This document shows, piece after piece, positions 26,872 through 43,430 of a stretch of DNA of 64,000 nt. The stretch is from a virus (Duplodnaviria > Caudoviricetes), in IMG/VR virus record IMGVR_UViG_3300031088_000008, positions 224,001 to 288,000 of that record; one strand, written 5' to 3'. The stretch's first letter is position 1, and the number at the start of each line of letters is the position of its first letter. A program made the position numbers and the translations under genes. Under the pieces are notes generated by a model. It saw only the letters and a program-made list of their open reading frames with translations. It ran no database searches and had not been told where the DNA came from.

Positions 26872-27421
26872 TGTCAAGGCAATCCGACATCATAGATCGG
26901 ATGACAGAGAAGATGCGAGAGGAGGCCGAGACTGGTCTTCCTGATCGCATCTTCCGTCACATCAATTTCAGAGCCCTTGCCCTCTCGGCATACCTGGCAA
27001 TACGAACAGACTTAAAGGAGATCGATGATGGCGATCAATCTGTGGCACCATGAAGAAGAGCCGGGCTACGACAAGAACAAAAGCACAACCGCTTTTACCA
27101 AGTGGCGCGTTCTCGTAATGGAACGTCTGGGTCAGCTCAACCAGCAGGGTAACGATGCGGCGGTTCAGACCATGCACGCCTATGGTCTGGAAGCTCTGGG
27201 CACCTCGTATGAGGATGGCACCACGGCCGAGGAACTGGCTCAGAAGCTGAACAGCAAGTGATCGGCTGGATCAAAGGCCTATTCAGGAGGTCGCGGAGCA
27301 TTCCACTTCGTGTGGGCGATGTTGCTCCCGACAGCTTGCTGAATCGCGAACCAGGTACAAATATCGGGGCCTTTGTTTCCATCGACCCCGACACCAAAAT
27401 CATCACCGCGATCTTTATACC

Positions 27422-27805: not shown

Positions 27806-27827
27806 TTTGTTACTCCGCTTTGTGCGT

Positions 27828-27984
27828 TTCCGATAAACAGACATTAGCATAAACCAGAGTTACTGCAACCAGTTTTACGCAAAAAGGGCAATTTTGCGCG
27901 CATTTTTTAGTTCAATTATTTTTGAAACTGAGTACTTTTTTGCTTGCGCGTTTCCAGTTTTATGCTAATGTCTGTTTATCGGAA
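27828..27984. repeat. 26-bp perfect inverted repeat forming back-to-back promoters around an AT-rich spacer
   Basis: ttccgataaacagacattagcataaa (27828-27853) / tttatgctaatgtctgtttatcggaa (27959-27984). Confidence 0.85.
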
Positions 27985-28007
27985 GCAAACAAACAAAGGA
28001 CTACAAA

Positions 28008-28355
28008 ATGAGCAAGATCGAAAACACGCTTGTTGTGCGCGCTGCAATCCAGACTGCAAACACTTTCAATGACGACACGCTGTACAACTGGGCATCAGAC
28101 TTGACGCTGCACAACAACAATGAGCACGCAAGCGTTGACGTAACAAACGATGAGCTTGACGACACGTTTGAAGCAGACATGAAAGCACTGGGACATGATA
28201 CTGACGCAGTGTACAACATGACTGACAATGAGTTGCAGTTGACTGGGCGCGCTTTTGTTTATGAAGCGATGGAACTTAAGGGCAACAACAGCAAAGTTAT
28301 TGCAGCTTACAAAAAAGCAATTAAGCAGCGCACAAAGTGGCTTAAGACGCGTTAA
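28008..28355 (+). CDS. Acidic D/N/T-rich protein with a basic tail, right gene of the divergent pair
   Basis: AAGGA RBS; no Pro; own terminator. Confidence 0.8.
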   Translation: MSKIENTLVVRAAIQTANTFNDDTLYNWASDLTLHNNNEHASVDVTNDELDDTFEADMKALGHDTDAVYNMTDNELQLTGRAFVYEAMELKGNNSKVIAAYKKAIKQRTKWLKTR

Positions 28356-28362
28356 GCAAAAG

Positions 28363-28393
28363 AGAGCGCGCTGGGAAACTAGCGCGCTTTTTT
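28363..28393 (+). terminator. Intrinsic terminator
   Basis: agagcgcgctgg-gaaa-ctagcgcgct-tttttt. Confidence 0.8.
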
Positions 28394-28458
28394 GTGACTA
28401 AACTGGTTGACGCGTTCCAGTCTGGCACTATGTTGAATGGAACAACAGGAGATCGAAA

Positions 28459-29487
28459 TTGGAAATTCGTAACGAAAAGACCAACATGGTCATGGAGCCC
28501 GCGCTCAAGAGGGCACTGGAAATTGTCCGCGAGGCACGGAACTTCGTGGTCGAGGACTACATCGAACGAAAGACCATTCTCCTCAACGACTACTATCGTC
28601 AGGCAGGGCTCAAGTCCGCCGTTGTCGCAGTGTCGGGCGGCATCGACAGCGCAGTCGTCCTCGGCCTCGTGGAAATGGCTGCTCGGGCCGACAACAGCCC
28701 CATCGAGCGCATCGTGGCAATCACAATGCCCGACAACGTCAACCCAGGGGTCACGGGCCAGAAGCAGGCCACGCGGCTCGCACAGGAAGTCTGCGAGGCT
28801 TTTGGTGTCAAGGCCGCAGTGATCAATATGAGCCGAATCACTGGTCCACTGATCGCAGAGGTCGAGAGCGCAGTCGGGTATCCCAGCGACGAAAAGGAAC
28901 TGTGGTGCGCTGGTCAGGCAACCAGCTACGCACGGACGCCCGCTTACTATTACGTGACCAGCATCCTGGCAGCACAGGGTCAGCCTGGCCTGATGATCGG
29001 CACGACCAATCTTTCGGAGGGCGGCTATCTGGGATACTTCGGCAAGGCCAGCGATGGCATGGTCGACGTTCAGCTGATCAGCGATGCGTACAAGAGTGAG
29101 ATCTACGATCTGGGTCGTTTCCTGGGTGTGCCCGAGGAGGTCCTGAATCGCGCCCCAACTGGCGATATGTATGACGCGACGACCGACGAGGTTGTGTTCG
29201 GCGCTCCATATGATTTCGTGGAGCTCTACATGGAGTTCAAGCGCGCTGGTGCTCGACAGCTTGCCTATGGTGGCGTCGACAGTGTGGTCTATGATGTCAC
29301 GCGCTGCCTGAGCATCGGCAACAATCTCCCAGCAGCCCAGGCACAGTGGGAGGAATATTCGGAAAACCTGGAGCGTATGCACAAGTACAACTCCCACAAA
29401 TATCTGGGTAGGTCGCCTGCTGTCCACCTTGACATCCTGGATTGTGGTGTTACTGGTGGCTGGAACAACACTCCCTGGAGGGCATGA
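28459..29487 (+). CDS. nadE: NH3-dependent NAD+ synthetase
   Basis: VVAVSGGIDSAV PP-loop; GTTNLSE..LGYFGK..DG..D.QLISD.YKSE; APTGD. Confidence 0.9.
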   Translation: MEIRNEKTNMVMEPALKRALEIVREARNFVVEDYIERKTILLNDYYRQAGLKSAVVAVSGGIDSAVVLGLVEMAARADNSPIERIVAITMPDNVNPGVTGQKQATRLAQEVCEAFGVKAAVINMSRITGPLIAEVESAVGYPSDEKELWCAGQATSYARTPAYYYVTSILAAQGQPGLMIGTTNLSEGGYLGYFGKASDGMVDVQLISDAYKSEIYDLGRFLGVPEEVLNRAPTGDMYDATTDEVVFGAPYDFVELYMEFKRAGARQLAYGGVDSVVYDVTRCLSIGNNLPAAQAQWEEYSENLERMHKYNSHKYLGRSPAVHLDILDCGVTGGWNNTPWRA

Positions 29488-29646
29488 TGAGCCATTACGG
29501 ACAGGTTATCGCAGAGATCGAAATGCGCGAAGCGGCACGAAAGGTAGAGGCCCAGAAGGCCGCTGATGCCGCGGCTGCCAAGAACCATCGCGCATGGCTT
29601 CGGCTTTGCGGTATGATGGATCCAATCGGTCGTCTCCAGGACTGAT

Positions 29647-30417
29647 GTGATGGTTGACAAGTCCAACTTTGTAAACCACTTCGAACTCGATGATGCTGCA
29701 CAGGCTTCCATCGACGATAGCTGGGGCGTTCTGCCCGGTCGGACCTTCGAGAATGTTCCCGGCACCCCACACAGCGTGGAAGTGATCGACAATCTGTTGG
29801 GCTGGCAGATCACCGCGACGCTCCGGGAGCAGCTGGACAAGAACAAGTGGCTGGCAGTGGGACTGGATGGCAAAGCCGACCATACCTACAATGAGATCGG
29901 AAACTACAGGCTTTCCAACTGGAACCCCGCGCTGGCGGAACGCATCTGGGAACGCCTGCGGCCCTTCTATGGTGACCGGATGCTCTGTGAAGCAACCTCG
30001 CCCACCGATCACGACGGCTACCCCGTATGGCGCCCCATTGGCGTATCTCCGCTATTCCGTTACATTCGGTACGCAGAAGGCGGAAAGCTGGTTGCCCACT
30101 ATGACGAGACGTTTCGTCAAAGCCGTGAGATCAGGACCCTGGAAACGCTGGTCATTTACTTGACCACTAACGAGCATGGCGCGACACGATTCATCCACGA
30201 CGAGCAAGTAGGAAAGCCCATGTGGGAATACAACTTCTCGGACTGGGATCGCAGTGCTCGAGAGGATGAGGTAGCCCTTCGCGTGGCACCACAGGAAGGT
30301 TCCGCGCTATTGTTCCCGCATCGTATGCTCCACGACAGCGAGCCACTGGCAGTCGGTGATCCTGAGAAGATCATCATCCGCACCGACATTTTGTTTGAAA
30401 GGGTTCCCCTTGCCTGA
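29647..30417 (+). CDS. 2-oxoglutarate/Fe(II)-dependent oxygenase
   Basis: RY..GG.L..HYD, LVIYL...G.TRF, GSALLF.H...H, K.IIRTD. Confidence 0.85.
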   Translation: MMVDKSNFVNHFELDDAAQASIDDSWGVLPGRTFENVPGTPHSVEVIDNLLGWQITATLREQLDKNKWLAVGLDGKADHTYNEIGNYRLSNWNPALAERIWERLRPFYGDRMLCEATSPTDHDGYPVWRPIGVSPLFRYIRYAEGGKLVAHYDETFRQSREIRTLETLVIYLTTNEHGATRFIHDEQVGKPMWEYNFSDWDRSAREDEVALRVAPQEGSALLFPHRMLHDSEPLAVGDPEKIIIRTDILFERVPLA

Positions 30418-30734
30418 GATGTTTCTCATCTTCCTCGGCGTCATTGCCAGCATCGTCGTAACAGCAATCAAGGCGCTTTTCGCCATCACGGCCTTTGGTT
30501 GGCTCGCCTGTTGGATTCCGCTTCTCATCGCAGTGGTGATCGTTCTGCTCATGAACGGCATCGACTTTTGGGATTAACCAAGGCGTAGGTTGTAATTAAC
30601 CTGCACTCCAGTTTAACATCCTTAATATATCGCAACACTTTTTAATCAAAAACGTTGCGATTTTTGTTTGACAGCCCTGCAGAATTGTCGCAGCTTAACT
30701 ACAGCTTAACGCTTTGTTAGGCCTTAGGAGATCG

Positions 30735-31385
30735 ATGATGAAGCACATCTTTATGGGCGCCGTTGCGGCGCTGGCACTGACGGTTGCGGGCGCGGCTTCG
30801 GCACAGTCCAACACACAGTCGAACAGCAACAGCGCATCGCAGAGCGGTTCGCAGGCCTCGACGACGACCATCAACAATGGTCAGAACGCCTTCAGCACGA
30901 TGGGCTTCTCCAATCAGGGCGGCACCAACAACGCCGGCCAGTCGGCCAACATCAACGGCACGTTCAACGGCAACGGCAACACGATCGGTTCGTCCGCATC
31001 AGGTTTCAACACCACGTTGGGCGGTTCGGCCAATGATGCGTTCGCGCGCTTCGAGAGCAATGGCACGGCATACAGCCAGACCAGCGTGACGCCGTTCGAG
31101 ACCACAACGACCAGCAACCACTCGGGCTTCGCAACGGGCACCGTTGACAATGGCGGCGCGTTCCAGGCTTCGGTCCAGACGTTCGGTCAGAGCAATGGCG
31201 GTTCGGCCTTCTCGGTTCGCGTCGACGGTGGCTACACTGCCTACGAAAACACCACGGGGTATGCCAACCAGGCTTCCAACTACTCCAACTACCAGGCCGC
31301 CCAGTCGTCCTTCCAGGACTTCTCGGCCAGCAACAGCAACTCCAACAGCGCCAGCAACTCGCATAGCGACGAGTCGAACAACTGA
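30735..31385 (+). CDS. Secreted S/N/G/Q-rich low-complexity protein
   Basis: Signal peptide ending ASA-Q; repetitive polar sequence; hairpin 31396-31420. Confidence 0.75.
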   Translation: MMKHIFMGAVAALALTVAGAASAQSNTQSNSNSASQSGSQASTTTINNGQNAFSTMGFSNQGGTNNAGQSANINGTFNGNGNTIGSSASGFNTTLGGSANDAFARFESNGTAYSQTSVTPFETTTTSNHSGFATGTVDNGGAFQASVQTFGQSNGGSAFSVRVDGGYTAYENTTGYANQASNYSNYQAAQSSFQDFSASNSNSNSASNSHSDESNN

Positions 31386-31451
31386 GCCAACTCCCTGGGA
31401 GGGGCCTAAAACCCCTCCCAACTTTTAATCCGTGAAACTAAGGGGAGAGAG

Positions 31452-32114
31452 ATGCGTAAACTCATTCTATTGTTGAGCATGTTGCTCAGCGGTCCGGCTC
31501 TGGCACAGACCACAGACGGAAACGCCAATGGTTCCACACCGGGTACCAACAGCACAACTGGTACCAGTCAAGCAACGAACGTAGTGAACGTTCAAGCAAT
31601 CACAGGTCCCCAGACCAATGTCCCGCAAAAGCAGGATGTCAACTATAGCGGCCACACCTACACGACTCCGAGTGTTAGTGGCAGTTACTTTGCTGGTGCT
31701 AACCCATGCTTGGTTGGTACTGGTGTGGGGGGCGCAGGTGGTCCCATCGGCTTCAACATCAACATCGGCAAGAATGACCAGGACTGTACGCGGAGAAGTG
31801 ACGCAGCAGCGTGGTTTGCGCTTGGACTCTCGGGCGTCGCAGTCACACGCCTCTGCCAAGATCGAGACAGCCGCAACCCAATGAACGCCGACGCCTTCTA
31901 CAGCGCAACTGGCTTCGCATGTCCGGGCAGCAACACCAAGGGCCGGTACAAGCTGGCAGATGGTACGCTGGCTCCCTATGCCATGCTGGGCAATGCGATG
32001 AAGATTCGCAACACCCCGGAGTTCAAAGATCCGGCCCTTACTCCGCTGGATCCAGCGATCCCCAACCCTCGCCAGGGCGCAGTGAGCCCAACAATCCCCT
32101 CAGCCAACCGCTAA
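31452..32114 (+). CDS. Secreted Cys-containing protein
   Basis: Signal peptide ending ALA-Q; four Cys; DQDCTRR...AVTRLCQD. Confidence 0.75.
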   Translation: MRKLILLLSMLLSGPALAQTTDGNANGSTPGTNSTTGTSQATNVVNVQAITGPQTNVPQKQDVNYSGHTYTTPSVSGSYFAGANPCLVGTGVGGAGGPIGFNINIGKNDQDCTRRSDAAAWFALGLSGVAVTRLCQDRDSRNPMNADAFYSATGFACPGSNTKGRYKLADGTLAPYAMLGNAMKIRNTPEFKDPALTPLDPAIPNPRQGAVSPTIPSANR

Positions 32115-32162
32115 AACTGCCCCCGGCCAATCCATAAGTAATGGGTTGGTTTGGAGGGCAGA

Positions 32163-32516
32163 ATGGCGCTGATTACATTTGGAACATTGACCACCGCCGG
32201 GTGGGCAGCATGGAAATATTGGCGCATTCCTTATCGCTTGTACCTCTGGCGCAAGGCTGAGGAAACAGAACCCGCAACTGGCCAGGTATGGCTGGAGGCG
32301 GGCTTCTCGCCCAAGGACAGCAAGTGGAAGATCAAGGAAGTCGAGGAGCTCAGTATCCTTCTCGAGAGCGTTCCGCCCAAAGATGGCGATGACACGGTTG
32401 AGCTAGACTTGGTCTGGGATGATTGGTCCGCCATGGTCAAGAAGACCCGCTTGTTCTGTCACGATAAGAATGACAGCATCCATGACCAATACTGGGGCGC
32501 AGGGGTGGACGACTGA
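32163..32516 (+). CDS. Membrane-anchored hypothetical protein
   Basis: GGAGG RBS; N-terminal hydrophobic segment. Confidence 0.6.
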   Translation: MALITFGTLTTAGWAAWKYWRIPYRLYLWRKAEETEPATGQVWLEAGFSPKDSKWKIKEVEELSILLESVPPKDGDDTVELDLVWDDWSAMVKKTRLFCHDKNDSIHDQYWGAGVDD

Positions 32517-32682
32517 TGGTTGTCTACAAGGGCTGGACCCTGACCACCGAGGGAATCCACTACTTTGCCCGGCAAGGAAATCTAAGCCGTCGTTTTGCCA
32601 CACGTGGAGCGCGTGAAGCTTGGATAAATCAACAACCCTAAATCTCTGGTTGACGTGCCCAACCAGAGTGCTAAACAGCTGG

Positions 32683-32843
32683 TAACAAGACGCTCGGTAT
32701 TGTTTACAGCCCGGCATAAAGAGCCCGATTCCAGAAAAAGGGCAGCGTGGTTTTGTTAGCGGTCCTCAGGCCCCGGATATGGCTTCCGGGAGATAATCCT
32801 GAGATCAACTGCGGTTATCGGGAGGGCTTGTCCCTCCCGTTTC
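32683..32843 (+). ncRNA. Candidate structured ncRNA (about 160 nt)
   Basis: Cassette promoter (TTGACG 32650, GCTA 32670) with no RBS or ORF; two stem domains; terminator 32819-32843. Confidence 0.55.
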
Positions 32844-32918
32844 TGCCTGTGACTGAATAAAACTGGTTGACAGTGTTCCAGTTTCTGCTAACTCTGGTGT
32901 ATAGGCAGCGGAGAACAG

Positions 32919-33164
32919 GTGATGACGATGCGGACTTTTAAGAGCCAGGACTTTAAGTGGAAGTCCAATGAGGGCGTTAGCTTTCTGGACGATCTTAAGA
33001 TTCACGGCTTTCCCCTCTCGGGCTTTTACATCAAGAGCGCGCTGACGGGTCGCATGAAGCTTTTTCTCCCCAACAACGCAACTGCTGAAAACCTCGATGG
33101 CCAGGCATACGATTATTTCTCGCCTGGCGGTAACGTAACGGTGCGTCTTTATGCAGAAGTCTGA
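32919..33164 (+). CDS. Hypothetical protein
   Basis: Cassette promoter and RBS. Confidence 0.65.
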   Translation: MMTMRTFKSQDFKWKSNEGVSFLDDLKIHGFPLSGFYIKSALTGRMKLFLPNNATAENLDGQAYDYFSPGGNVTVRLYAEV

Positions 33165-33495
33165 CGCACTTCCCCCAGAGGGTCCATATGATTGCCAGGC
33201 TTGCGGCGCATGTTGCGTCGTGGCCGGCAAAGTTTCTGTGACGCCCGAGGACTCCACCCCCAAGCGTATGGTCACTGGTGGCTTTCTCAAACGGCACCTC
33301 GGTGGACGCTGCCAAGCACTCGAGGGAACCATTGGCGCTTGTGTGGGCTGCACGATATACCGGAAGCGACCCAGCGTCTGCGTGAGCTTTGCCGCCGGCA
33401 GCGAGGGCTGCAGGTATGCCCGGGAGGTTGCCAGCTACGCCATAAAGAGTGGCGGTCGTCGCGGCTTTGGTGACAACTGGCGCGAGACTGTCTAG
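33151..33495 (+). CDS. YkgJ-family Cys-cluster (Zn/Fe-chelating) protein
   Basis: CQACGACC...RCQAL...CTIYRKRPSVC. Confidence 0.8.
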   Translation: MQKSDALPPEGPYDCQACGACCVVAGKVSVTPEDSTPKRMVTGGFLKRHLGGRCQALEGTIGACVGCTIYRKRPSVCVSFAAGSEGCRYAREVASYAIKSGGRRGFGDNWRETV

Positions 33496-33572
33496 GATTT
33501 GACAACTCGCTAACGCTTCTTTAAGGATATTGTTGCATAGACGTAGAACAATGTTCTTGGAGATCGAATAGA

Positions 33573-34505
33573 ATGTCAGTTAATCAGACCATTGCCTTTA
33601 CGTCCGACCTGATGTCGGAAGACGATTGGTCAACCCAAATCCCCGGTGCGCGTGAGACAATGCGTCACAAGTTCCATCGTGCTCAGCCCAGCGAGATTCT
33701 CGCAGAAGAGATCGTCAGCCGCGGCACCAAGCCCATGATCGCCGGTATCCTCGCCGCAGGGTTGATTGCCAGCGCGCCAGCAGCGCAGCATCGTCCCTCC
33801 ACTCACAGCAAGGCCCACACCGCGCACGTCAAGGCCAAGCCCAAGGTTCACCGGAAGCGAACCAAGATCCGCATCCGTCGTCACCGCATTCCTCGCGACA
33901 CCTACAGTGGTCCCATCAACGAGACGCCACTGGCGGTCACGACCTGGATGGAAGCGCGGAATCAAAAGCGTCCCGGTCGCCTCGCAGTCATGCACGTTAT
34001 CAAGAATCGTGTCCTGGCCAACAAGCGGATGTTTGGCATCGGTCTCCGGGGAGTGTGTCACAAGCCCTGGCAGTACAGCGCATGGAACCGGAACGACGAC
34101 AGCCAGCGGGTTGCGTTCTTCAACATGCTCCAGCTTCCCGAAGACCATCCCGAGAAGATCCTCTGGCGCAGCATTCAAAAGGATGCCAAGCTGGTGTGGA
34201 ACGGCGACAACACGGATAACACTGGTGGGGCAACCTACTACCACACACCGGCAGTCAAGCCCAAATGGCGCTATGATATGACGGTCGTGGGGCAGATCGG
34301 TGACCACATCTTTTACCGTGAGATGACCACACGTGAGCGAAAGCTGAAGGCGCGTGACGATGCGGCGAATCGTCGGCTGAAGAAGGCTCGGAAGATTGCC
34401 CGTCGTGCCAACACCCGACAGGTGACCATGACGATCAGCATCCGCTACAAGACGCGGACCAGTCAGGCAGTTCCAATGCGGGTTGCAGCAACGCATCGTC
34501 GATAA
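33573..34505 (+). CDS. Cell-wall hydrolase, SleB/Hydrolase_2 family
   Basis: EARNQ...AV.HVI.NRV...QYS.WN...TGGATYYH...P.W...IGDHIFY; hydrophobic segment and basic linker N-terminal. Confidence 0.85.
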   Translation: MSVNQTIAFTSDLMSEDDWSTQIPGARETMRHKFHRAQPSEILAEEIVSRGTKPMIAGILAAGLIASAPAAQHRPSTHSKAHTAHVKAKPKVHRKRTKIRIRRHRIPRDTYSGPINETPLAVTTWMEARNQKRPGRLAVMHVIKNRVLANKRMFGIGLRGVCHKPWQYSAWNRNDDSQRVAFFNMLQLPEDHPEKILWRSIQKDAKLVWNGDNTDNTGGATYYHTPAVKPKWRYDMTVVGQIGDHIFYREMTTRERKLKARDDAANRRLKKARKIARRANTRQVTMTISIRYKTRTSQAVPMRVAATHRR

Positions 34506-34596
34506 AAAAGTTCAAACTCTGGTTAAAAAGCGGTTGCGCGGCCAAACTCTGGTGCTATTGTCTGTTTATCGGAAACGCACACAGCAGGAGCAGAAA

Positions 34597-34929
34597 ATGG
34601 CCGCACAGATCGAAATCATCGCAGCAGCGCACTTTTACAACGAGGGCAAGCGCGGCATTCGCGGCGGCGCAGCGCAGAACGACAAGGTCTGGGGCCTGGC
34701 GAAGATCGGCAACACGCTGGTTCGCTTCTGGGGTCGTCGCAACGGCGCGCTGAAGTTCAAGACCGAGATCAACGGCGTCCCTGCTGATCTCCTGCGTAGC
34801 AAGCTGGCAAAGGGCTACGAGACGATGGGCGGCAACTACATGGCGATGCTGACGCCCCGCCTGAAGGCCGACATGCCCTCGCAGTATTACAGCGCGATGG
34901 CACGTGGTGCGCTTAACACGCGGCACTAA
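34597..34929 (+). CDS. WGR-like domain protein
   Basis: DKVWG...FWGRR...KL.KGY; paralog of 63402-63764. Confidence 0.6.
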   Translation: MAAQIEIIAAAHFYNEGKRGIRGGAAQNDKVWGLAKIGNTLVRFWGRRNGALKFKTEINGVPADLLRSKLAKGYETMGGNYMAMLTPRLKADMPSQYYSAMARGALNTRH

Positions 34930-35221
34930 AAAGCGGTTGACCCAGAGTTAGAATGTGCTAACTCTGGGTTGTAGGCAAACAACTAGGAGATCGAAGATGA
35001 GCGTACTGACCCCGCGGATGCTGAAGGCAATCATCGACAACATGGATGAGATCCAGCTGGACATGGCGATCACCATCGCAGGTGAAGATGATCGTCTCAC
35101 CCAGGCCGAAGATGCAACGCTCACGCAGGATGGCGCGCTGATCATCGGCGAATAAGGCGGTTGACTCTGGTGTGGAATCCGCTACACCAAAGTTATAGGA
35201 AACGAAGACAGGAGATCGAAG

Positions 35222-35386
35222 ATGAAGACGGAAACGAAGCTGGTCGGGCAGGGCGTGGCAATTGGTTCGCTGGTTACCTCGATGGCGCTTACCTTCCCCA
35301 AGATCACGCTGGTCATCGCGCTGGCATTCATCGCCTGGCTGATCATTCCGGCCGCGATCGGCGCCTACAAGGACACGCGGGGCTGA
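35222..35386 (+). CDS. Small membrane protein (54 aa)
   Basis: Cassette promoter and RBS; hydrophobic. Confidence 0.6.
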   Translation: MKTETKLVGQGVAIGSLVTSMALTFPKITLVIALAFIAWLIIPAAIGAYKDTRG

Positions 35387-35580
35387 TGAACTTTCCATTC
35401 TATCTCGATACGTCGGGCAGCATGAGCGACGAGATGATCCGCGATTTTAAGCGGGAAGTCGATGCCATCATGTTGCTGGAGCGGGCACGTCGTGCCAAGT
35501 TCCTCTTGTGGCAGCGTCGTGCCAAGCCGGAACGGGCAAGGAATCGCATCCGCCGCGCAAGCCGTCGCGCAAATCGCTAG
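35386..35580 (+). CDS. Small protein with a vWA/DUF2201-like MIDAS fragment
   Basis: FYLDTSGSMSDE then a basic tail; TGATG coupling. Confidence 0.55.
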   Translation: MNFPFYLDTSGSMSDEMIRDFKREVDAIMLLERARRAKFLLWQRRAKPERARNRIRRASRRANR

Positions 35581-35850
35581 GAGAGAAGACCATGATGATC
35601 GAAGTCCCGGACGAGTTCATTGCTCGTATGAAGAAGCTGGCCGCCAAGGCAATGGACTATGAGGACGATGATTTCGATCTGAATAGCTACGTGGGCGGCA
35701 ACATCGACGACGCCTATTCGCGTGGCGAGGATCAGGGCGAGATCCAGGCTGCTCGCGAGATCGTGAGTTTTCTGCCCAAAGAGGACTAAAACTGGTTGCC
35801 CTGCTGTCCAGTTCTGCTAAAACCAGAACATAGGCAAGCAGGAGCAAGCA

Positions 35851-36117
35851 ATGTTCGAGAACGGTCAGAAAGTCAAGTTCACCAAGCATGGCGTGGAAGT
35901 CGAAGGCCGCATTGATGGTCGTCGGACGTGGTGCCAGGTTGGTGGACATTGCCACACCAAGCATCAGACGGCGGCTGTAAACACGGCCGTGATGGCATGG
36001 GGCTTCAAGGTCCACGCTCCCATCGTTCAGCCGGACGGCACTTTCTATAAGGATCGCCACGATCGCCCCCTGATGGGTCTGGGCTACATGGATGAAAAGC
36101 TGCTCACCGCTGCATAA
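35851..36117 (+). CDS. Hypothetical protein ending in TAA
   Basis: Cassette promoter and RBS. Confidence 0.7.
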   Translation: MFENGQKVKFTKHGVEVEGRIDGRRTWCQVGGHCHTKHQTAAVNTAVMAWGFKVHAPIVQPDGTFYKDRHDRPLMGLGYMDEKLLTAA

Positions 36118-36195
36118 AGCGGTTGACGCACAGCGTCCAGGTTGTAAAACCAGAACATAGGCAAACAGCGCAAACGCGCAGCAGGAGATCGAAAC

Positions 36196-36468
36196 ATGGC
36201 ACAGGTAACGACGGATCGCGATGGCATGGAATTCACCGGCGAGGCCGTTGAGTTCACGCTGGGCACTGGTGGCAAGACGATCGAAGACGCCAAGGAATTC
36301 TGCGAAGATATGTGGGGCGGCGCCCAGAAGGGCGATATCGCAGTTCTCCACGAGGGGATCTACTACGTTTGCGATGGCGTGGACCCCAACGCTGGCAAGC
36401 CATTCACTGATGCGCAGGTCGGTGAAATCGTCCTCCACTTTGGTCCGGAGAATGTGACTTTCTTCTGA
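36196..36468 (+). CDS. Acidic hypothetical protein
   Basis: Cassette promoter and RBS. Confidence 0.7.
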   Translation: MAQVTTDRDGMEFTGEAVEFTLGTGGKTIEDAKEFCEDMWGGAQKGDIAVLHEGIYYVCDGVDPNAGKPFTDAQVGEIVLHFGPENVTFF

Positions 36469-36535
36469 AAACTGGTTGACCCTGGGTGTTCTGGTGTTAC
36501 AACCAGAACATAGGCAGACAACGTGGAGATCGGCA

Positions 36536-36799
36536 ATGCGCGGACTGGTAAAGAAGACGACCATCAAGGCAACGTTCACCGCTGACCAGTGGGACCTGTA
36601 CGGAAACAAGGGTCGCGATACGGCGGCCAAGCATCTGAATCAGGCCCTGGAAGCGGCTGTCAATATGGAGGGTTCCAGTCCCAGCAGTGTGTGGCGTGCA
36701 ATGAACACCGCGATGAACGAGTTCATCCACTTGGGCGCCTGCGACAGCGAGCCCAACCGGATGGTCGACGATATCCTGGCCGAGATTTACACCTCGTAA
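36536..36799 (+). CDS. Hypothetical protein
   Basis: Cassette promoter and RBS. Confidence 0.7.
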   Translation: MRGLVKKTTIKATFTADQWDLYGNKGRDTAAKHLNQALEAAVNMEGSSPSSVWRAMNTAMNEFIHLGACDSEPNRMVDDILAEIYTS

Positions 36800-36862
36800 A
36801 AGCGGTTGCATCCGCCTGTCCTGGTGTTAGGACAGTTTTATCGGAAACAAAAGGAGGGCCCA

Positions 36863-37063
36863 ATGGACGGTCGTGAAGCAAATCTGGCCAAGGACAAGAT
36901 GGTCGCGGACCTGTATGCGCGAACCTACGCCGCAGCAATCTCGGCCAACGATAACGGGGTGATCCCCGCCGTGGAGGCCAAACAGGCCGTGAAGAAGTTC
37001 ATCGAGATGATGAAGGTTCTGAGCGCTCCCGAGTGGATGTGGTACAAGGAAAACGAGCTTTGA
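36863..37063 (+). CDS. Hypothetical protein
   Basis: Cassette promoter, AAGGAGG. Confidence 0.65.
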   Translation: MDGREANLAKDKMVADLYARTYAAAISANDNGVIPAVEAKQAVKKFIEMMKVLSAPEWMWYKENEL

Positions 37064-37380
37064 TCCGCCAGTGGATGAGTCGCCCCCTGACGATGAACGT
37101 CTGGGTCAATGCCCTCTTTTACGGCTTCGTCGCTGTAACGACCAACAACCTGATCAACCGTTTTTGGGTCACGCCTCAGAATCCCGAGGGCCTGACTGGC
37201 TTCTTCGGCTACGTGGTCCTGTTCTTCTCCGTGGGCTTTTGCACCTGGCTGAGCAATCGTGAGAACGAGTGGGTGTCGGAGATCAAAAAGGCCGAGAAAG
37301 CCTCGCAGAAGCGATAACCTGGTTGACACTGCCCAGCGCGGTGTTACATCCAGAACATCGGAAATGCAGAGGAGAGTGGA

Positions 37381-37569
37381 ATGTTCGTCGTTGAAGTAAT
37401 GGGGAAGTTCTCCAAGAAAAACGAAGAGTTCTACCTTGATGCGCAGGGCAAGAAGAACCGCTTCTTCAGCAAGGCTGCGTCCTTTCCCACTGCAGAGTCC
37501 GCCGAGGCCGCGGGTCGGCTGTTTGTTGAATCTGGCAAGGGCTACGGCTTCCAGGTCAACGCCGCTTAG
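37381..37569 (+). CDS. Small protein ending in QVNAA
   Basis: Cassette promoter, GAGGAG. Confidence 0.7.
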   Translation: MFVVEVMGKFSKKNEEFYLDAQGKKNRFFSKAASFPTAESAEAAGRLFVESGKGYGFQVNAA

Positions 37570-37579
37570 GAGATCGAAT

Positions 37580-38341
37580 ATGACGAGTCAGCTGTTTAAG
37601 ATCGTGGAGCGCGAGCGTGATCCCCAGACGGTTCTGGAAACGATTGCTGTTCTGATCGCCGGCGCAGAGCGCAACTATCCCGTTGAAGAGGCGGTCAAGA
37701 CCCACTTCAACAAGAGCATCGAGAGCGATGGTCGTCGCTGGGGCGAGCATCAGGGAACCATCGAGGACATTCGGCTCCAGCGCGAGGCACTTGATCGTGG
37801 CTTCCGCGTAACGTTCTCCTATGATGAGTATGCGCGCGGCTGCCATATGGGTTCCACCCGCTACGTTACGTTCATCCCCGACAATCTCGTCACCCTCTGG
37901 GAAGTATGGCAGGACGAGGACCAGGGCTTCGCGATCCAGGACGAGGGTTCGGCCGTCGACACCTACGAGGCGTTCCAGAGCGCCCTGATGGAGCACACCA
38001 AGGAGCGGATCGAGAGCATCCGCCGCGACATCAAGGAGACCGCCCGTCAGGAAGAAGCCGATCGTGTCGCGCAGGCCAACGCAACCTACGAGCTGCTGGG
38101 AAGCTGGCACAGTGGCGAGACGGAAGCGCGCTACCAGGAACTGGCCAACTCCAGCAAAGCCGGAACGGCAACCGACGAGGAGATCGACAACTTTCTGGTC
38201 AAGCTGCTCGACGAAGCGCCCACTGACGTGACGATCGGCTATGCGCGTCGCATCCTGGTCGTGGATAAGATGCGCTTCAACCCCAGCAAGTCGGTGGCCT
38301 GGGCCCGGATCCAGAAGATGATGGTAAATCTCCTGGTCTAA
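37580..38341 (+). CDS. Hypothetical protein
   Basis: AGGAGATCGA RBS; start corrected to 37580. Confidence 0.75.
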   Translation: MTSQLFKIVERERDPQTVLETIAVLIAGAERNYPVEEAVKTHFNKSIESDGRRWGEHQGTIEDIRLQREALDRGFRVTFSYDEYARGCHMGSTRYVTFIPDNLVTLWEVWQDEDQGFAIQDEGSAVDTYEAFQSALMEHTKERIESIRRDIKETARQEEADRVAQANATYELLGSWHSGETEARYQELANSSKAGTATDEEIDNFLVKLLDEAPTDVTIGYARRILVVDKMRFNPSKSVAWARIQKMMVNLLV

Positions 38342-38399
38342 ACTGGTTGACTGTCCCAGCTCTGGTGTTAGGGCTGGGACAACGGCTAGGGAGAACATC

Positions 38400-38807
38400 G
38401 TGGCACTCACTTACAATCAGGCTTTGGAAGTTGAACCCGAGGTTCTCCGGCAGATGTTTCTCGTGGCATTCGGCCACTATCCAGTCTTAGAGTGGCACGA
38501 GAACTGGACCATGTATGATGATGGCGATGGTTTCGAATACGATGAGCCCATGGTCATGCGGGACTTTCACCTCCTGATCGACACGGAACTTCTGCATAAG
38601 GTCGACGAGTTTTCCTACAGCTACATTCGGCACCTCTTGGTTGAGGTCGTGGAGGACAAGCTGCGAAAGCCCGAGATCTTCCACACCAACCTCAGGGCAA
38701 GCCGAAAGTACAGCTTCAGCGACACCGAGGACTGGTGGGACAGCATCACGTTCAAAGGCGACATTGGCGAGCGCACTCGCTTCGACGTATCGGTGACAAT
38801 CGGATGA
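38400..38807 (+). CDS. Hypothetical protein
   Basis: Cassette promoter and RBS. Confidence 0.7.
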   Translation: MALTYNQALEVEPEVLRQMFLVAFGHYPVLEWHENWTMYDDGDGFEYDEPMVMRDFHLLIDTELLHKVDEFSYSYIRHLLVEVVEDKLRKPEIFHTNLRASRKYSFSDTEDWWDSITFKGDIGERTRFDVSVTIG

Positions 38808-39169
38808 CCTACGGACTCAGACGCTTCGAGGAATACGCCCTGGAGCCCGCAGAGGGCATGGCCCGCCTACACTGCGAGTGGACATCAGAGGCAAGCGGGT
38901 TGGAGATCTACGTTCGGCGGTCGATCCGCTGGAAGGGTGTGATCACACTAGCAAACATCACGCTTCCTCGCCACCTTCAGCAGCAGGGAATATTCACGCG
39001 CTTTTGTGAAGACTGGAAGCCCCGTCTTCCACTGTTCATTGAGCACGTGGGCAATCCTGATCTGGATCGTTGGCTCAATCGAACGGGCTGGTACCTCTAC
39101 GATCTGGATGGCCACAACGGCTATTACAATGATCTAGCCAGCGCAATCATTGATCGGCGTTTCAAATAA
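38804..39169 (+). CDS. GNAT-like acetyltransferase
   Basis: LANITLPRHLQQQGIF (acetyl-CoA motif A-like); VGNP.L..WL.R.GW. Confidence 0.45.
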   Translation: MTYGLRRFEEYALEPAEGMARLHCEWTSEASGLEIYVRRSIRWKGVITLANITLPRHLQQQGIFTRFCEDWKPRLPLFIEHVGNPDLDRWLNRTGWYLYDLDGHNGYYNDLASAIIDRRFK

Positions 39170-39227
39170 AAGGTTGAACTCTCACCAGTGTTCGCTATTT
39201 AGAAGTGATACTGGTTGGAGATTGAAC

Positions 39228-39410
39228 ATGAAGCGTACCCCAATATGGCTGCTACCGATTGGCTTTAATGCCAACGAGGTCGAGGGGCGTGAAGCGTTCG
39301 AAGCTGGTGAGGACGTTGACTTTCACCCATATGGTGACAGTGCAGCGGCCAAGGATTTTCAGAGGGGTTGGCGTCAGGCCGAACTCCGGAGCAAGGAGGC
39401 AAAGAAGTGA
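39228..39410 (+). CDS. Ribosome modulation factor (Rmf)-like small protein
   Basis: GREAFEAG.....HPY........FQRGWRQA matches the G..A...G.....PY...W..GW..A pattern. Confidence 0.55.
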   Translation: MKRTPIWLLPIGFNANEVEGREAFEAGEDVDFHPYGDSAAAKDFQRGWRQAELRSKEAKK

Positions 39411-40377
39411 TTCAGACCTACAATCCGTGCGAGCAGAATGATCCACGGTTCCAGGACGTTCGCGACAAGCATCTGGGCGTTGACATCATGTTCGTCAGCG
39501 GTATCTCTGGCTGGTCGTGGTCGGCCAAGCTGCCCAACGGCGATCAGCTCAGCGATGACTGCTTTCTGAGCCCCGAGGGTGCGATCGACAACTGCATCCT
39601 GGTTCTCTCCAACGATCCCCAGTGGCGTCCCGATCCGTTCGCCAGCAAGCCGGTGACCAGCCGGACCGACCTCGACGACTACTTGAAGCGGTGGACCGAA
39701 GAACACGGTTGACACTGGGCCAGTTCCTGTTAGGAGATCGAGCATGACGTTAAAGATCGCAAACTCGGCAATCAGCGAGACCCATCGGTTCACGGTGGGT
39801 ACCAGCAACCACGATGGCTATATGTACCTCCAGGTCGAGGACATGACCACACGGGAAGTGAGCTCCATAAAGCTGGACGATGAAAGTCGTTCCTGTCTTC
39901 GGAAGGTGCTCGGCCCCACGGAAAACTGGACTGGTATTTTCTGATGGGCAAGGCCATTCTTCTCCTCTTTGCGATCATGCAGGGCATCGCTATCGCACTG
40001 GGAATGATCAACGCCGGTGATTGGAACATCGGTCACTGGGACGAGGGAACCCGCAACGCGGTCGCTACCTTCCCAGCGACGATCATCATCTTCCTCATCC
40101 TCCTGTATTTTTCGGGAACCAAAGACGAGAAGGGAAAGTAAATGGCCTTGACTGCTGATGAGCGCGAGGAACTCACCAACCTGTACGCGCAGATGAAGGC
40201 AGGCGGAAAGGAGTGGAACCCCACCCCGGAAGCCAAGATCGAAAGCAACCAGCGCCTCGATGAAGCACTGTGGGCGGCGATGTGTCATCGGACTGGTCGC
40301 TGCGGTCTTGGTGTCGACCAGGCCTATCCGGAAACGCCACAGGCTCGCGTCTATCAACTCATGATGAAGGCACTGGG

Positions 40378-40794
40378 ATGAATATTGGAAAGTCGATCGG
40401 CATCGGCATAATGGTCGGCTGCGTGGCCGCTTGGGGTTATATCATTACCCCCGAGTACGTTCTGTTTCCCGACCGCGAAGCGCCCATGCGTTATTACTAT
40501 GACGCCAAGCGGGTCTTCAACGAAACGGAAACCAAGGAGTATGGTGACGGCGAGTCCTATACCCAGACCTACACGGGCGCTTGCCCCGACCTGAGCCTGA
40601 TGACGGCCAAGGCGCTGGGCGACAAAAAGCTCACGATCCGGGAAGTCCACGACCTGGGCAAGGAATCGCTCCGGCTGTTCAACACCGCCGAGGAAGTCAG
40701 TCGCCGCAACGAGGCTCTCAAGGCTGCTGGCCAGAAGATCACGGATAGCAATATCCAGTGTGAGCATGGTGATGAGCTCTTCCAAAACCTATAA
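40378..40794 (+). CDS. Membrane-anchored hypothetical protein
   Basis: N-terminal TM; ATGA overlap. Confidence 0.65.
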   Translation: MNIGKSIGIGIMVGCVAAWGYIITPEYVLFPDREAPMRYYYDAKRVFNETETKEYGDGESYTQTYTGACPDLSLMTAKALGDKKLTIREVHDLGKESLRLFNTAEEVSRRNEALKAAGQKITDSNIQCEHGDELFQNL

Positions 40795-40835
40795 AGCTGG
40801 TTGACTGGTCTCCAGACTGGTGCAAAGTGGGTGGC

Positions 40836-42551
40836 ATGACGGACACTTATTCATGCGGCATAACAGCCCACCGACCGGAAGCGGATCTTTATAATCTGCT
40901 GGGACTTCATCGCGTAGCAACGCGGGAAGAGATCGAAGAAGCTGGTTCAGGCAAGGTGCTAACAGACGATCAGCGGTACGCTTGGAAAGCACTCAGCGAT
41001 CCCACGTACCGTGAGGTCTATGACTTCCGCCACAATACCAAGGACCTGTTCAACGCAGGGTTCTTTGACGACGGGCTCCCCAAGTTGGTTGAGCAATATG
41101 GAACCTACAATCCAACGTTTCAGACCACGTCGCTTCAGAAGGTTCGCAACAACCTGATCAAGCTGATCGGCGGAAACAACGGTGGTCGTCGAGCAGTCCT
41201 GATCACAACTGGCGGAATGGCTCCCATCCACAACGGGCACATCGCAATGATGGAGCGCGCTCGTGAGATCGTTGAGGGCCAGGGCTTTCAAGTAATGGGT
41301 GGCTTCTTTGCCCCAGGACATGACAGCTACGTTAGCCAAAAGTACAACGGAACGGCTGGTATTTCGGCCGTCCATCGTATTGCAATGGTGGAGCTCGCAA
41401 CACAGGACAGTGATTGGCTTGAGGTCGATCCCTGGGCAGCCCGCTACATGCCGGCCGAGGTCAACTTCACGGCGATCGCTCGCCGGATGGAAGCATACTT
41501 GTCCCAGAACTTGGGACAGATCTTTGATGTCTTTTACGTCTACGGCTCCGACAACAGCGGCTTCCAGGAAACTGGCATTCCAAGCGTACAGGTAACGCGA
41601 AGCGAAGTGTCGAGCAAGCTGGTACGCGAGGGTGAGCATCACCACTTGAACCCCCGGGTTGCCAAGTATTTCCAGGAGTATAAGAACCGGGACACGGGAA
41701 ATCTTCCTTACTTGATCCGCAACGAGGAAGACGAGGCAATCGTTGGCTGGGCAAATAGGATGCCGGGCGGTCGTGAGGAGCTCACAAAGCGTCGGGTGCA
41801 GCTTCAGAGCGCGATTCGACTTGCAATCGCACACTTGTTCAAGGGTGCAGGTGGCAATCACAAAGTCCATCTCCTGCCGGTAAGTGAGCAGAAGGAAAAG
41901 GCCACCTGGCTGATCGGTGATCGGAAGGTGATCAGCCTAGATCCATTCTTCCATTACCATGGCGTACACCACCTGGACAGCACTCGCTACTTCAGTCAGA
42001 GCAGCTCACAGTTCTCGGCATTGTTCCGCGATACGCGCTTTGGCTTCGACAGCTTGCAGGAACAGGCAGACAGCATCCCGGACGGCGATTACGTGCTGGT
42101 CGAAGATGACAGCGTGACTGGCGAGACCATCAACAGCGCACGGATGAGACTGGGCGATCGCATCAACATCACGGATGTGATCCTTCTCTCGGACTTTGCA
42201 GACTACAAGGACGACGCCTACTATGATGTGGTGGACCTGAGGGACTTTATCGTTGGAAGTCACATGGGTGGGCTTTCCGTTGTGCTCAATGGTGGTCAAC
42301 GAGGCCGCGCACCATATGCGCTTCCCTACGTGAGCCTTCGCAGTCGGGCAAAGATTCCGCCCTCGGCCGAAATGGAACTCAGCCGTGTGATCTGGCAGGC
42401 CAACGTCCGCTTCTTCACCGACAGCGGGATCCTGATCCGAGATGCCTCGCTGGACTTGCAGGAACTGGCCAACAGCATTGGCTGGGGCAAAGATGGTACC
42501 ATGGAGGACTTTTGCCGCTGGCACGTCGACGCTTTGTTGGACGTGGTGTAA
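40836..42551 (+). CDS. Fusion: J-domain-like + nicotinate/nicotinamide-nucleotide adenylyltransferase + type I PRTase-like domain
   Basis: DLYNLLGL...AT.EEI...AW..LSDP..R..YD (J-like, no HPD); TGGMAPIHNGH...RIAMVELA...WL.VD.W...YVYGSD (NadD/NMNAT); YVLVEDDSVTGET (PRPP loop). Confidence 0.75.
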   Translation: MTDTYSCGITAHRPEADLYNLLGLHRVATREEIEEAGSGKVLTDDQRYAWKALSDPTYREVYDFRHNTKDLFNAGFFDDGLPKLVEQYGTYNPTFQTTSLQKVRNNLIKLIGGNNGGRRAVLITTGGMAPIHNGHIAMMERAREIVEGQGFQVMGGFFAPGHDSYVSQKYNGTAGISAVHRIAMVELATQDSDWLEVDPWAARYMPAEVNFTAIARRMEAYLSQNLGQIFDVFYVYGSDNSGFQETGIPSVQVTRSEVSSKLVREGEHHHLNPRVAKYFQEYKNRDTGNLPYLIRNEEDEAIVGWANRMPGGREELTKRRVQLQSAIRLAIAHLFKGAGGNHKVHLLPVSEQKEKATWLIGDRKVISLDPFFHYHGVHHLDSTRYFSQSSSQFSALFRDTRFGFDSLQEQADSIPDGDYVLVEDDSVTGETINSARMRLGDRINITDVILLSDFADYKDDAYYDVVDLRDFIVGSHMGGLSVVLNGGQRGRAPYALPYVSLRSRAKIPPSAEMELSRVIWQANVRFFTDSGILIRDASLDLQELANSIGWGKDGTMEDFCRWHVDALLDVV

Positions 42552-42621
42552 AAACCTGGTTGACGTGTTCCTGTTTGGTGCTAAATCTGGTACATAGGAA
42601 ACGCACACAGGAGTTGGTCAC

Positions 42622-43020
42622 ATGGCGCTGGTTCGGATCAAGGAAGACAAAACGCAGGCTCGCCACTATCCACGCAACGAGCGCGGTGGTCGCGGTTCGT
42701 ATGCAATGCGTCGCTATCACAGCAACAGCAAGGTGTACGTTTTCGAAGACGGTGAGTCGATCATCGAGAACCTGATGGAGCGCCGCCAGCGTCCCAGCGC
42801 ACGTTACAAGGCCATCGTCCTCGAGCAGCATCCGGAGCTCGAAGGCAAGATCCGGTGGTCGCAGAAGGCCGGCTGCTCGTGCGGTTGCAGCCCCGGCTTC
42901 CTGGTCGATCACACTGTCCGCAAGGATGGTTCGCCGGCCGACATTTTCATCACGATCACGACGAAGCCGCCCGAGCCCATCGTTGATATGAGCTACGTGG
43001 AAATGGCACTGGCCGCCTAA
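42622..43020 (+). CDS. Hypothetical protein ending in ALAA
   Basis: Cassette promoter; WSQKAGCSCGCSPGF motif. Confidence 0.75.
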   Translation: MALVRIKEDKTQARHYPRNERGGRGSYAMRRYHSNSKVYVFEDGESIIENLMERRQRPSARYKAIVLEQHPELEGKIRWSQKAGCSCGCSPGFLVDHTVRKDGSPADIFITITTKPPEPIVDMSYVEMALAA

Positions 43021-43088
43021 AAAGAGGTTGCGGTGTACCAGAGTGGTGCTAACTCTGGTACATCGGAAACGCAGATCGGAGATTGAAC

Positions 43089-43430
43089 ATGGACGCACAG
43101 GCACTCCACACGGAAGCAACCACGGCAGCCCAGAAGGCAGTCGACGACCTGATCGCCAAGTATGGCGAGTCCAGCAATATGTTCGGATGCTGCGGCTTTG
43201 CATGGGTGAAGATTCGCCCGGCGCGTGGCCCGTTCGTCAAGTTCCTGAAGGCCAACAACCTGGGCGACAAGAGCTACAACGGTGGCTACGAGGTTCGCCC
43301 CGAGGTAACGTATCCAGCGGGTTGCGTGGCCTGGCAGTCGATCGAGGTTCGCGAGGCAGGGTGTCGCGCATACGCGAAGGTCCTGAAGGACGCGGGCATC
43401 AACGCTTTCCTGCAGAGCATGGTTGACTAA
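43089..43430 (+). CDS. Hypothetical phage protein
   Basis: CGFAWV...QS...EA...AYA.VL...GI pattern; cassette promoter. Confidence 0.75.
   Translation: MDAQALHTEATTAAQKAVDDLIAKYGESSNMFGCCGFAWVKIRPARGPFVKFLKANNLGDKSYNGGYEVRPEVTYPAGCVAWQSIEVREAGCRAYAKVLKDAGINAFLQSMVD

Follow-up and report, generated by a model that had tools for sequence, protein, structure and literature searches.

Why should a jumbo phage that already carries a canonical salvage cluster for nicotinamide adenine dinucleotide (NAD) encode a further NAD synthetase, and why should an oxygenase lie beside it? The question is raised by a stretch of 64,000 nucleotides, here called the window, that comprises bases 224001-288000 of IMG/VR record IMGVR_UViG_3300031088_000008, a jumbo-phage record of 416,714 bp with a CheckV completeness of 90%. 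Three genes of the window are at issue. They encode an NAD synthetase homologue, here NadE'; a 2-oxoglutarate (2OG)-Fe(II) oxygenase; and a fusion protein that joins a J-like region, an adenylyltransferase domain for nicotinamide or nicotinate mononucleotide (NMN, NaMN; the domain is referred to as NMNAT) and a domain resembling type I phosphoribosyltransferases (PRTases), here PRT'. A preliminary description, made from the letters of the sequence, had placed all three open reading frames (ORFs) on the plus strand, where we also find them (Table 1), and had proposed that they form a deamidated route to NAD by way of NaMN and nicotinate adenine dinucleotide (NaAD). We find that the three genes are a real variant of NAD-type biosynthesis, one that is widespread, apparently undescribed and, in its chemistry, only half explained. 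In the reading that we prefer, to which we assign a probability of roughly 0.55, the module is a separate assembly line that leads from phosphoribosyl pyrophosphate (PRPP) to a dinucleotide to an amide, yields NAD or a close analogue, and has an oxidative step coupled to NadE'.

Linkage and fusion of the three genes

The functional linkage of the three genes is borne out by gene fusion and by co-occurrence. Thirteen protein clusters combine NadE', the 2OG oxygenase, NMNAT and PRT' in one polypeptide of 1131-1212 aa, and in all six of these long proteins that were scanned the Pfam families NAD_synthase, 2OG-FeII_Oxy_3 and CTP_transf_like precede PRT'. The order of domains in these fusions is the order of the genes in the window, and one such protein bears the NCBI name "NAD(+) synthase [bacterium]" only. 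The family around PRT' is large: a word-indexed search returned 82 full-length relatives of the fusion protein, many on contigs of 300-960 kb, and a profile made from seven PRT'-only sequences found 1056 proteins at E <= 0.001 (391 at E <= 1e-30) among 1.84 billion representatives. Architectures were counted in 228 family proteins with local hidden Markov models (HMMs), domain matches shorter than 50 residues being discarded. The arrangement of the window, J-like-NMNAT-PRT', accounts for 153 of the 228, followed by NMNAT-PRT' (31), PRT' alone (30, many of them fragments), NadE-2OG-(J-like)-NMNAT-PRT' (13) and NadE-NMNAT-PRT' (1); the J-like domain occurs in 163 proteins, and forms of 705 aa are fused to a GNAT domain.

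Three neighbourhood surveys and the single-polypeptide fusions together place the co-occurrence of the three genes, which the preliminary description had proposed as a check, far above chance. When the fusion protein was searched against IMG/VR, 84 pattern matches led to 15 loci, of which 12 have PRT' and three matched the NMNAT part only. A NadE and an oxygenase homologue lie nearby in eight of the 12 PRT' records; four of these share the order of the window at a spacing of about 9-13 kb, and in the other four the genes span no more than about 5 kb, two of them having the order NadE-2OG-fusion. The remaining four comprise a fragment that ends early, two related records with a distant oxygenase and no NadE, and a fragment that has NadE and NAMPT and lacks the oxygenase. 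A search with PRT' against GTDB genomes gave 80 pattern matches and 19 loci, all in metagenome-assembled genomes (MAGs) of 0.8-2.4 Mb. Module-type NadE adjoins the fusion gene in all 19, and five loci encode it as a protein of 585-598 aa that ends in the oxygenase; no oxygenase accompanies it in the remaining 14, which come from MAGs of gut Bacilli, Clostridia and the like. Finally, NadE' searched against IMG/VR gave 47 pattern matches and 19 loci, 10 of them in new records, with an oxygenase within 10 kb of NadE' in 15 and the fusion gene, or split NMNAT and PRT' genes, within 10 kb in 16 and about 13-14 kb away in two more; one 33-kb fragment has neither fusion gene nor oxygenase. Altogether 37 of 38 other records carrying NadE' also encode a protein with NMNAT and PRT-like parts, and the hosts of the module are jumbo phages, gut Firmicutes-type genomes and bacteria of the candidate phyla radiation (CPR).

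The same 38 records reveal that the oxygenase has a substitute. Twenty of them carry a 2OG oxygenase, 16 carry a radical S-adenosylmethionine (SAM) enzyme instead and two are cut-off fragments; within the DNA examined per locus, none of the 38 carries both. In 13 of the 14 gut operons, overlapping genes encode a decarboxylase-like enzyme dependent on pyridoxal phosphate (PLP), a radical SAM protein of about 290 aa, NadE' and the fusion protein, and the fourteenth contig begins at NadE'. The gut radical SAM proteins are 65-82% identical among genomes and have no NCBIfam name, the best rows, MoaA and viperin, being far under their cut-offs. The PLP enzyme, of diaminopimelate (DAP)/ornithine-decarboxylase type, is restricted to these 13 MAG operons among the 38 records. 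In three of the four viral NadE' loci that have no oxygenase, a radical SAM gene adjoins NadE' or the fusion gene: the one in L069 is 48-50% identical to the gut type, and those in L025/L063 and L068 are RaSEA-like (TIGR01210, E 1.9e-48 and 165 bits, under the cut-off of 212). This distribution of oxygenase and radical SAM genes, which does not demonstrate equal function, leads us to infer that the module includes an oxidative or radical step as one of its integral parts, in oxygen-dependent and oxygen-independent forms.

Several operons hold further genes. In the gut locus L040 (9265-16392) and its relatives L042-L045 and L055, the fusion protein has a C-terminal GNAT domain and the operon adds a SPASM-type radical SAM enzyme and a protein of 618 aa whose match to YdiU is faint; L040 goes on with a further pair of radical SAM genes, one of them fused to a CoaE-like kinase. 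P-loop kinase-like genes of AAA_33 or Zeta-toxin type adjoin the module in L021 (12243-13124), L022 (11256-12101) and L069 (5688-6890). Genes of NAD metabolism are also found as neighbours: NrtR, PncB and a glutamine-dependent NadE lie directly 3' of the fusion gene in L039, NrtR and NAMPT precede the module in L053, and Nudix and NAMPT genes adjoin it in L025.

Among 50,697 GenBank phage records, tblastn with the fusion protein gave no match at E 1e-5, and the full fusion was seen in no cultured phage. The 2OG-NadE pair, though not PRT', occurs in the Xanthomonas phages BUDD and X1. The oxygenase goes with NadE' rather than with the PRT-like step, and even in BUDD its link to NadE is kept. 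BUDD (ON758385.1; locus L058, 173922-188740) is a cultured phage of 199 kb whose genes encode, in order, a 372-aa weakly NMNAT-like protein, the 2OG oxygenase, NadE, two unnamed proteins, NMNAT, another unnamed protein and NAMPT. Acinetobacter phage vB_AbaM_ME3 encodes a 212-aa protein with a PRT'-like predicted fold (E 3e-7).

Domains of the module proteins

NadE' belongs to the NAD synthetase family by its scores (Pfam NAD_synthase PF02540, E 7e-29 and 101.1 bits, cut-off 21; NCBIfam TIGR00552, 100.6 bits, cut-off 63.65) and by its PP-loop SGGIDS, which fits the family pattern SGGxDS; the alignment adds a C-terminal extension with the conserved motif E..H..N.HKY..PA..D..W. It does not group with the canonical NadEs of PncB/NadD clusters. 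An HMM of module-type NadE scores module NadEs at 400-517 bits, including five sequences outside its training set at 400-430 bits, and four PncB-linked NadEs at only 15-59 bits, among them the second copy of this genome, which is 24% identical to NadE'. Because the sequences outside the training set are so clearly set apart from the PncB-linked ones, NadE' is a subfamily of its own. Its closeness to PDB entry 3fiu, which we take to be a NadE of NMN-synthetase type, was dropped as evidence, since the other NadE of the genome matches 3fiu equally (69.9 versus 70.5 bits).

The oxygenase has the iron triad, basic residue, Pfam score (2OG-FeII_Oxy_3, PF13640, 33.8 bits, cut-off 27) and double-stranded beta-helix (DSBH) fold of a 2OG-Fe(II) enzyme of the prolyl 4-hydroxylase (P4H) type. 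Across 14 aligned sequences H151-x-D153, H225/H229 and R245 are invariant. Its AlphaFold2 (AF2) model has a pLDDT of 92.8, and Foldseek ranks prolyl 4-hydroxylases best (3gze, E 1.3e-8). The structural neighbours, of P4H, AlkB, AsqJ, PolD and MysH types, are generic and name no substrate, and an Atlas search with the oxygenase returned phage 2OG clusters only.

The fusion protein was thought to consist of a J-domain, an NMNAT and a PRTase, and these three labels fare differently. The first does not hold: the Pfam DnaJ match covers 20 residues at E 0.046 and 14.3 bits (cut-off 27.8), and the HPD motif is absent from all 24 aligned fusion relatives, so that the region, with its own conserved motifs RYAWKALSDPxY and AGFFDDGL, is J-like only. 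The NMNAT domain, in contrast, is solid. It matches PF01467 (E 3.1e-8, 34.3 bits, cut-off 21) and the NMNATs of the PDB (E 1.1e-12 to 6.5e-10), and it has both the (H/T)xGH motif, as HNGH at residues 135-138 where it had been described, and SSxxxR; H135, G137, H138, S262, S263 and R267 are invariant in 24 sequences and W203 is nearly so. Its score with the NadD equivalog TIGR00482, 40.9 bits, is far under the cut-off of 112.45.

For the third domain, the canonical, invariant PRPP loop stands and membership in the Pfam PRTase family does not. A type I PRPP-binding loop consists of four hydrophobic residues, an acidic pair and then TGxT; PRT' has this motif (YVLVEDDSVTGET) as VLVEDDSVTGET at residues 423-434, again at the place first given for it. 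Y422, D427, D428 and G432 are invariant and T434 is nearly so in the 24 sequences, and the loop aligns with that of adenine phosphoribosyltransferase (APRT). PRT' profiles match adenine PRTases at the loop only, and weakly (E 0.016-0.018); a second APRT-like match 3' of the loop, to "D-x-R-G/D-F", had a negative score and was dropped. Scanned against Pfam with an E limit of 5, the seven PRT'-only sequences yielded no helpful match, the one PRTase_2 row being at E 0.27, and two relatives of PRT' reach Pfam Pribosyltran below threshold, at 22.2 and 21.6 bits (cut-off 26.3). The AF2 model, from an alignment of 42 rows, has a pLDDT of 95.6 and a pTM of 0.92. When it was compared with 48,161 chains by VIA-align, 20 of the top 23 rows were PRTases, PRPP synthetases, PurR or PyrR, at Z values of 6.1-7.8 that the tool rates as middling. 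As a lead only, the nearest ESM Atlas clusters by features bear the name "Phosphoribosyltransferase domain-containing protein" (0.89). An additional C-terminal subdomain has the invariant residues D..R-D, R.PY, P.V, R and W. Because the Z values are middling, we describe PRT' as type I PRT-like with an extra C-terminal subdomain and not as a proven member.

Table 1. Positions of the module genes, the canonical NAD genes of the same phage and other features (window coordinates, except those marked C1)
Feature	Position	Strand	Remarks
NadE'	28459..29487	+	NH3-type NAD synthetase homologue, distinct subfamily; 342 aa from TTG
P4H-like 2OG-Fe(II) oxygenase	29647..30417	+	NadE' partner; ATG 29650 likelier start
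J-like/NMNAT/PRT' fusion	40836..42551	+	ATG start; in-frame GTG at 40827, homologues begin at ATG
N-terminal J-like domain	40836..41168	+	residues 1-114; no HPD
NadD/eukaryote-type NMN/NaMN adenylyltransferase domain	41169..41693	+	residues ~115-289; HNGH 41229-41240; SSxxxR
Type I PRT-like domain PRT'	41694..42548	+	residues 290-574; PRPP loop VLVEDDSVTGET at 42093-42128
Second NadE	in cluster C1:36992-43623		372 aa; PF02540 E 5.4e-40
PncB	in cluster C1:36992-43623		437 aa; NF003704 441.6 bits (cut-off 379); type II
Nudix	in cluster C1:36992-43623		238 aa
NadM-type NMNAT	in cluster C1:36992-43623		215 aa
PncA-like isochorismatase	in cluster C1:36992-43623		205 aa
Further cytidylyltransferase-like genes	C1:122909-123328, 72783-73184
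Further Nudix genes	C1:389232-389603, 333382-333555, 168291-168515
Acb1-like anti-CBASS phosphodiesterase homologue	15257-15733	+	PF23474 E 7.2e-11, 42.4 bits (cut-off 27)
Class I aminoacyl-tRNA synthetase, Trp/Tyr type	18519-19538	+	PF00579 E 3.1e-65
Cell-wall hydrolase/endolysin-like protein	33573-34505	+	PF07486 E 4.2e-16; phrog_938
ORF of 314 aa	45564-46508	+	no known family
TPM-domain phosphatase with TPR repeat	55037-56305	-	PF04536 E 5.6e-33
Class I aminoacyl-tRNA synthetase, Glu/Gln type, with anticodon-binding domain	61069-62349	-	PF00749 E 4.8e-79

Proposed chemistry of the module and its alternatives

The domain set, the fusions of PRT' with NMNAT and of NadE' with the oxygenase, and the neighbours from the NAD regulon are the reasons for regarding the module as an assembly line for a pyridine dinucleotide. 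We infer its substrates and products, the order of its steps, the role of the oxygenase and the benefit to the phage. PRT' would join PRPP to a carboxylated pyridine base, nicotinate being the simplest candidate, to give a mononucleotide; the adenylyltransferase domain would add AMP to give the dinucleotide; and NadE' would convert the carboxylate to the carboxamide, with the oxygenase acting directly before or after it. The oxidative partner would be the P4H-like oxygenase in this phage and the radical SAM enzyme in oxygen-free settings, and the module would turn out NAD, or an analogue very near to it, alongside the PncA-PncB-NadM-NadE cluster of the same genome. In 3 of 18 module genomes (G026, G032 and G034), no NadE or NMNAT homologue was found besides those of the module, in keeping with NAD itself as the product.

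Such a scheme resembles the Preiss-Handler pathway (PncB, NadD and NadE) in its phosphoribosyl transfer, adenylyl transfer and ATP-dependent amidation, and in its NadD/NMNAT- and NadE-type domains. It differs in that its transferase domain is type I PRT-like and part of one protein with the adenylyltransferase, where the type II enzyme PncB would be expected, in agreement with the preliminary description; to our knowledge, nicotinate-type phosphoribosyltransferases have so far been of type II only. It differs also in the NadE' subfamily with its obligatory oxygenase or radical SAM partner, and in that this phage and the majority of the bacteria examined have a canonical Preiss-Handler set besides the module.

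Several observations weigh against the assembly-line reading. The phage has its own PncB within a canonical cluster (Table 1), 186 kb from the module and outside the window, and a further route from nicotinate would duplicate it; this redundancy speaks for a different substrate, product or nitrogen donor. Of the 18 module genomes, 14 have another NadE besides, either ordinary in length or glutamine-dependent and several times beside PncB and NadD, and 10 have a PF04095 enzyme; in L039 PncB is the direct 3' neighbour of the fusion gene. Absences of genes from the module genomes are soft, the completeness of the MAGs not being given. The textbook Preiss-Handler scheme includes no oxidative enzyme, and BUDD keeps oxygenase and NadE together without any PRT'. 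As to PRT' itself, the domain of the window has no match to Pfam PRTase PF00156; Foldseek gave P4H for the oxygenase, as described above, and for the PRT' model no PDB row at E <= 0.001, the best being APRT, PyrR and hypoxanthine-guanine phosphoribosyltransferase (HGPRT) at about 0.07; and the top VIA-align row, an untitled entry, has a middling Z of 8.4. To judge from these model comparisons, PRT' could bind PRPP without transferring a base.

The proposal of a deamidated route is thus kept in part. The domain set fits phosphoribosylation, adenylylation and amidation; but because of the canonical cluster in the phage and the second NadE in 14 of 18 genomes, the module is not simply "the" deamidated route, nor the sole or obvious one. 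It is not a mere duplicate of the Preiss-Handler pathway either, since canonical genes coexist with it, an oxidative partner is needed and this partner is tied to NadE'; for the same reasons its base, nitrogen donor or product may differ. Likewise, the linkage of the oxygenase held, and the scheme first proposed leaves its tie to NadE' and its replacement by radical SAM enzymes unexplained.

What would the phage gain? A role chiefly in counter-defence, in which the module would rebuild NAD after depletion of the SIR2, TIR or SEFIR type, is compatible with the proposed chemistry, and we regard it as possible though doubtful. Reconstitution of NAD by phages is established for NARP1 (Adps and Namat) and NARP2 (Nampt and Nmnat; bioRxiv 10.1101/2024.02.11.579819, PMC13728456), and for NARP3 (PnuC and NadR; PMC13464706), and an Acb1-like anti-CBASS protein is encoded in the same window (15257-15733). 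The module shares with NARP1 and NARP2 that it is phage-encoded, uses PRPP/ATP chemistry and would end in NAD, and NARP1 uses a protein with a PRPP-synthetase/PRT fold; NadE and the oxygenase, however, belong to neither. The preliminary description was right to set the module apart from both systems, since neither has its parts in the 416,714-bp record: there is no match to PF13793, the N-terminal domain of PRPP synthetases, for the PRPP-synthetase-like Adps; the record's only PF04095 match is PncB (NF003704) and not the NAMPT-like Namat; and that single protein carries NAPRTase_N, not the NAMPT_N of Nampt, although NAMPT adjoins the module in L025 and L053. No part of the module matches a component of NARP1, NARP2 or NARP3, and the module is common in cellular genomes, where it stands beside the housekeeping NAD regulator NrtR; both facts speak against a dedicated counter-defence function.

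Alternatively, the chemistry may depart further from the known pathway, with a base other than nicotinate, an NAD analogue as product, or NAD made with an amino-acid nitrogen donor that the oxygenase or radical SAM enzyme would trim. This would make the module non-redundant with the canonical PncB, NadD and NadE of the same genomes. It would also suit an oxidative partner that is always there, swapped between oxygenase and radical SAM enzyme, and an oxygenase that is fused to NadE' and not to PRT'. The glutamine-dependent NAD synthetases offer a parallel, in that they too join a NadE core to another catalytic domain; theirs is an N-terminal CN-hydrolase (a nitrilase-like glutaminase), whereas the module has a C-terminal 2OG-Fe(II) oxygenase, and by analogy the second domain of the module may handle the nitrogen donor. 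A precedent for lysine as nitrogen donor is archaeosine synthesis by ArcS and RaSEA (PMC11298593), in which lysine is attached and then cut by a radical SAM enzyme. RaSEA-like genes, under the TIGR01210 cut-off as given above, flank the module in two viral loci (L025 and L068), but the substrate of ArcS-RaSEA is tRNA-bound preQ0 and its ligase is not a NadE, so that the likeness is an analogy only. The DAP/ornithine-decarboxylase-like PLP enzyme of the 13 anaerobe operons and the GNAT domain on the 705-aa fusion forms would also be in keeping with such a chemistry. Three findings point the other way: the PLP enzyme is missing from the three viral radical SAM loci, the NMNAT domain, like true NMNATs, retains the DPW tryptophan, and the module seems to be the sole NAD route in three genomes. 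On balance we consider a departure of this kind unlikely.

A specific version of it, which we would call a long shot, is an ammonia-independent completion of NAD that follows the first nicotinate-class PRTase of type I. Here NadE' would ligate the amine of a lysine-, ornithine- or DAP-like amino acid to NaAD. The carbon next to the nitrogen would then be oxidised, by the 2OG oxygenase or, where there is no oxygen, by a radical SAM enzyme, and breakdown of the adduct to the primary amide would release NAD and an aldehyde. This version would explain why the oxygenase is fused to NadE' instead of PRT', its replacement in anaerobes by radical SAM enzymes, some of them RaSEA-like, the PLP enzyme of anaerobes and the coexistence with ordinary NadE.

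It is also conceivable, if improbable, that PRT' is a regulatory or scaffold domain that senses PRPP or nucleotides, the module then boosting no more than the final two steps, which are universal, from host NaMN to NaAD to NAD, with the oxygenase as a regulator. In favour of this, the structural comparison lists PurR and PyrR (Z 6.3-6.4), PRT' falls into no Pfam PRTase family, and many module genomes retain a type II PRTase. Yet about 20 polar residues, including the whole PRPP loop, are invariant in PRT' at about 30% identity, the family spans 1056 representative clusters, and stand-alone forms of PRT' exist. Moreover, 7 of the 18 module genomes have no significant type II PRTase of either family, NadC being over its cut-off in one of the 18. 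That the three genes simply happen to lie near one another in a densely packed jumbo-phage genome, with no relation between them, as the 10.4 kb and about 20 ORFs between oxygenase and fusion gene in the window might suggest, is contradicted by the fused single polypeptides and by the contiguous operons of many other records, and can be set aside with near certainty.

Surroundings of the module and its significance

Small genes on the plus strand take up about 89% of the first 53 kb of the window, and the coding strand changes from plus to minus near 53.2-53.4 kb. Scans of 27400-43200 for promoters and terminators gave results at or under shuffle expectation, and no tRNA gene was found in the window, which encodes two aminoacyl-tRNA synthetases (Table 1). 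The endolysin-like gene lies between the oxygenase and fusion genes. Downstream of the latter, part of the 314-aa ORF (45897-46499) has a weak match (26% identity, E 1e-19 by tblastn) to the gene directly 3' of the fusion gene in the viral locus L025; this similarity suggests that the ORF may be a further, loosely linked partner of the module. Elsewhere in the phage genome an RNA-ligase-like gene lies 3' of the canonical NAD cluster.

No published description of the module was found in the literature searched, which covered few subscription journals, so that this is not proof of absence. Clusters of pncB, nadD and nadE have been published from "NAD-jumbo phages" (PMC11662467), and the supplementary tables of that paper may already count module genes as nadD or nadE. 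The paper on phage X1 lists pncB, nadM, nadD, nadE and NAMPT as auxiliary genes only (PMC13384950), and the words NadE, NMNAT, 2OG and dioxygenase are all absent from the main text of another survey (PMC9503650).

NAD biosynthesis is usually regarded as fully mapped, and the supply of NAD is among the chief things over which phages and bacterial immune systems contend. Two parts of the module are left unexplained by the known pathways, the type I PRT-like domain and an oxidative enzyme that comes in oxygen-dependent and oxygen-independent versions. If PRT' does make a pyridine mononucleotide, it would be a non-homologous replacement of PncB, NadC and NAMPT, and if the oxidative step belongs to the amidation, the module would represent new NAD chemistry. 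Surveys that label its genes plainly as nadD or nadE would miscount pathways.

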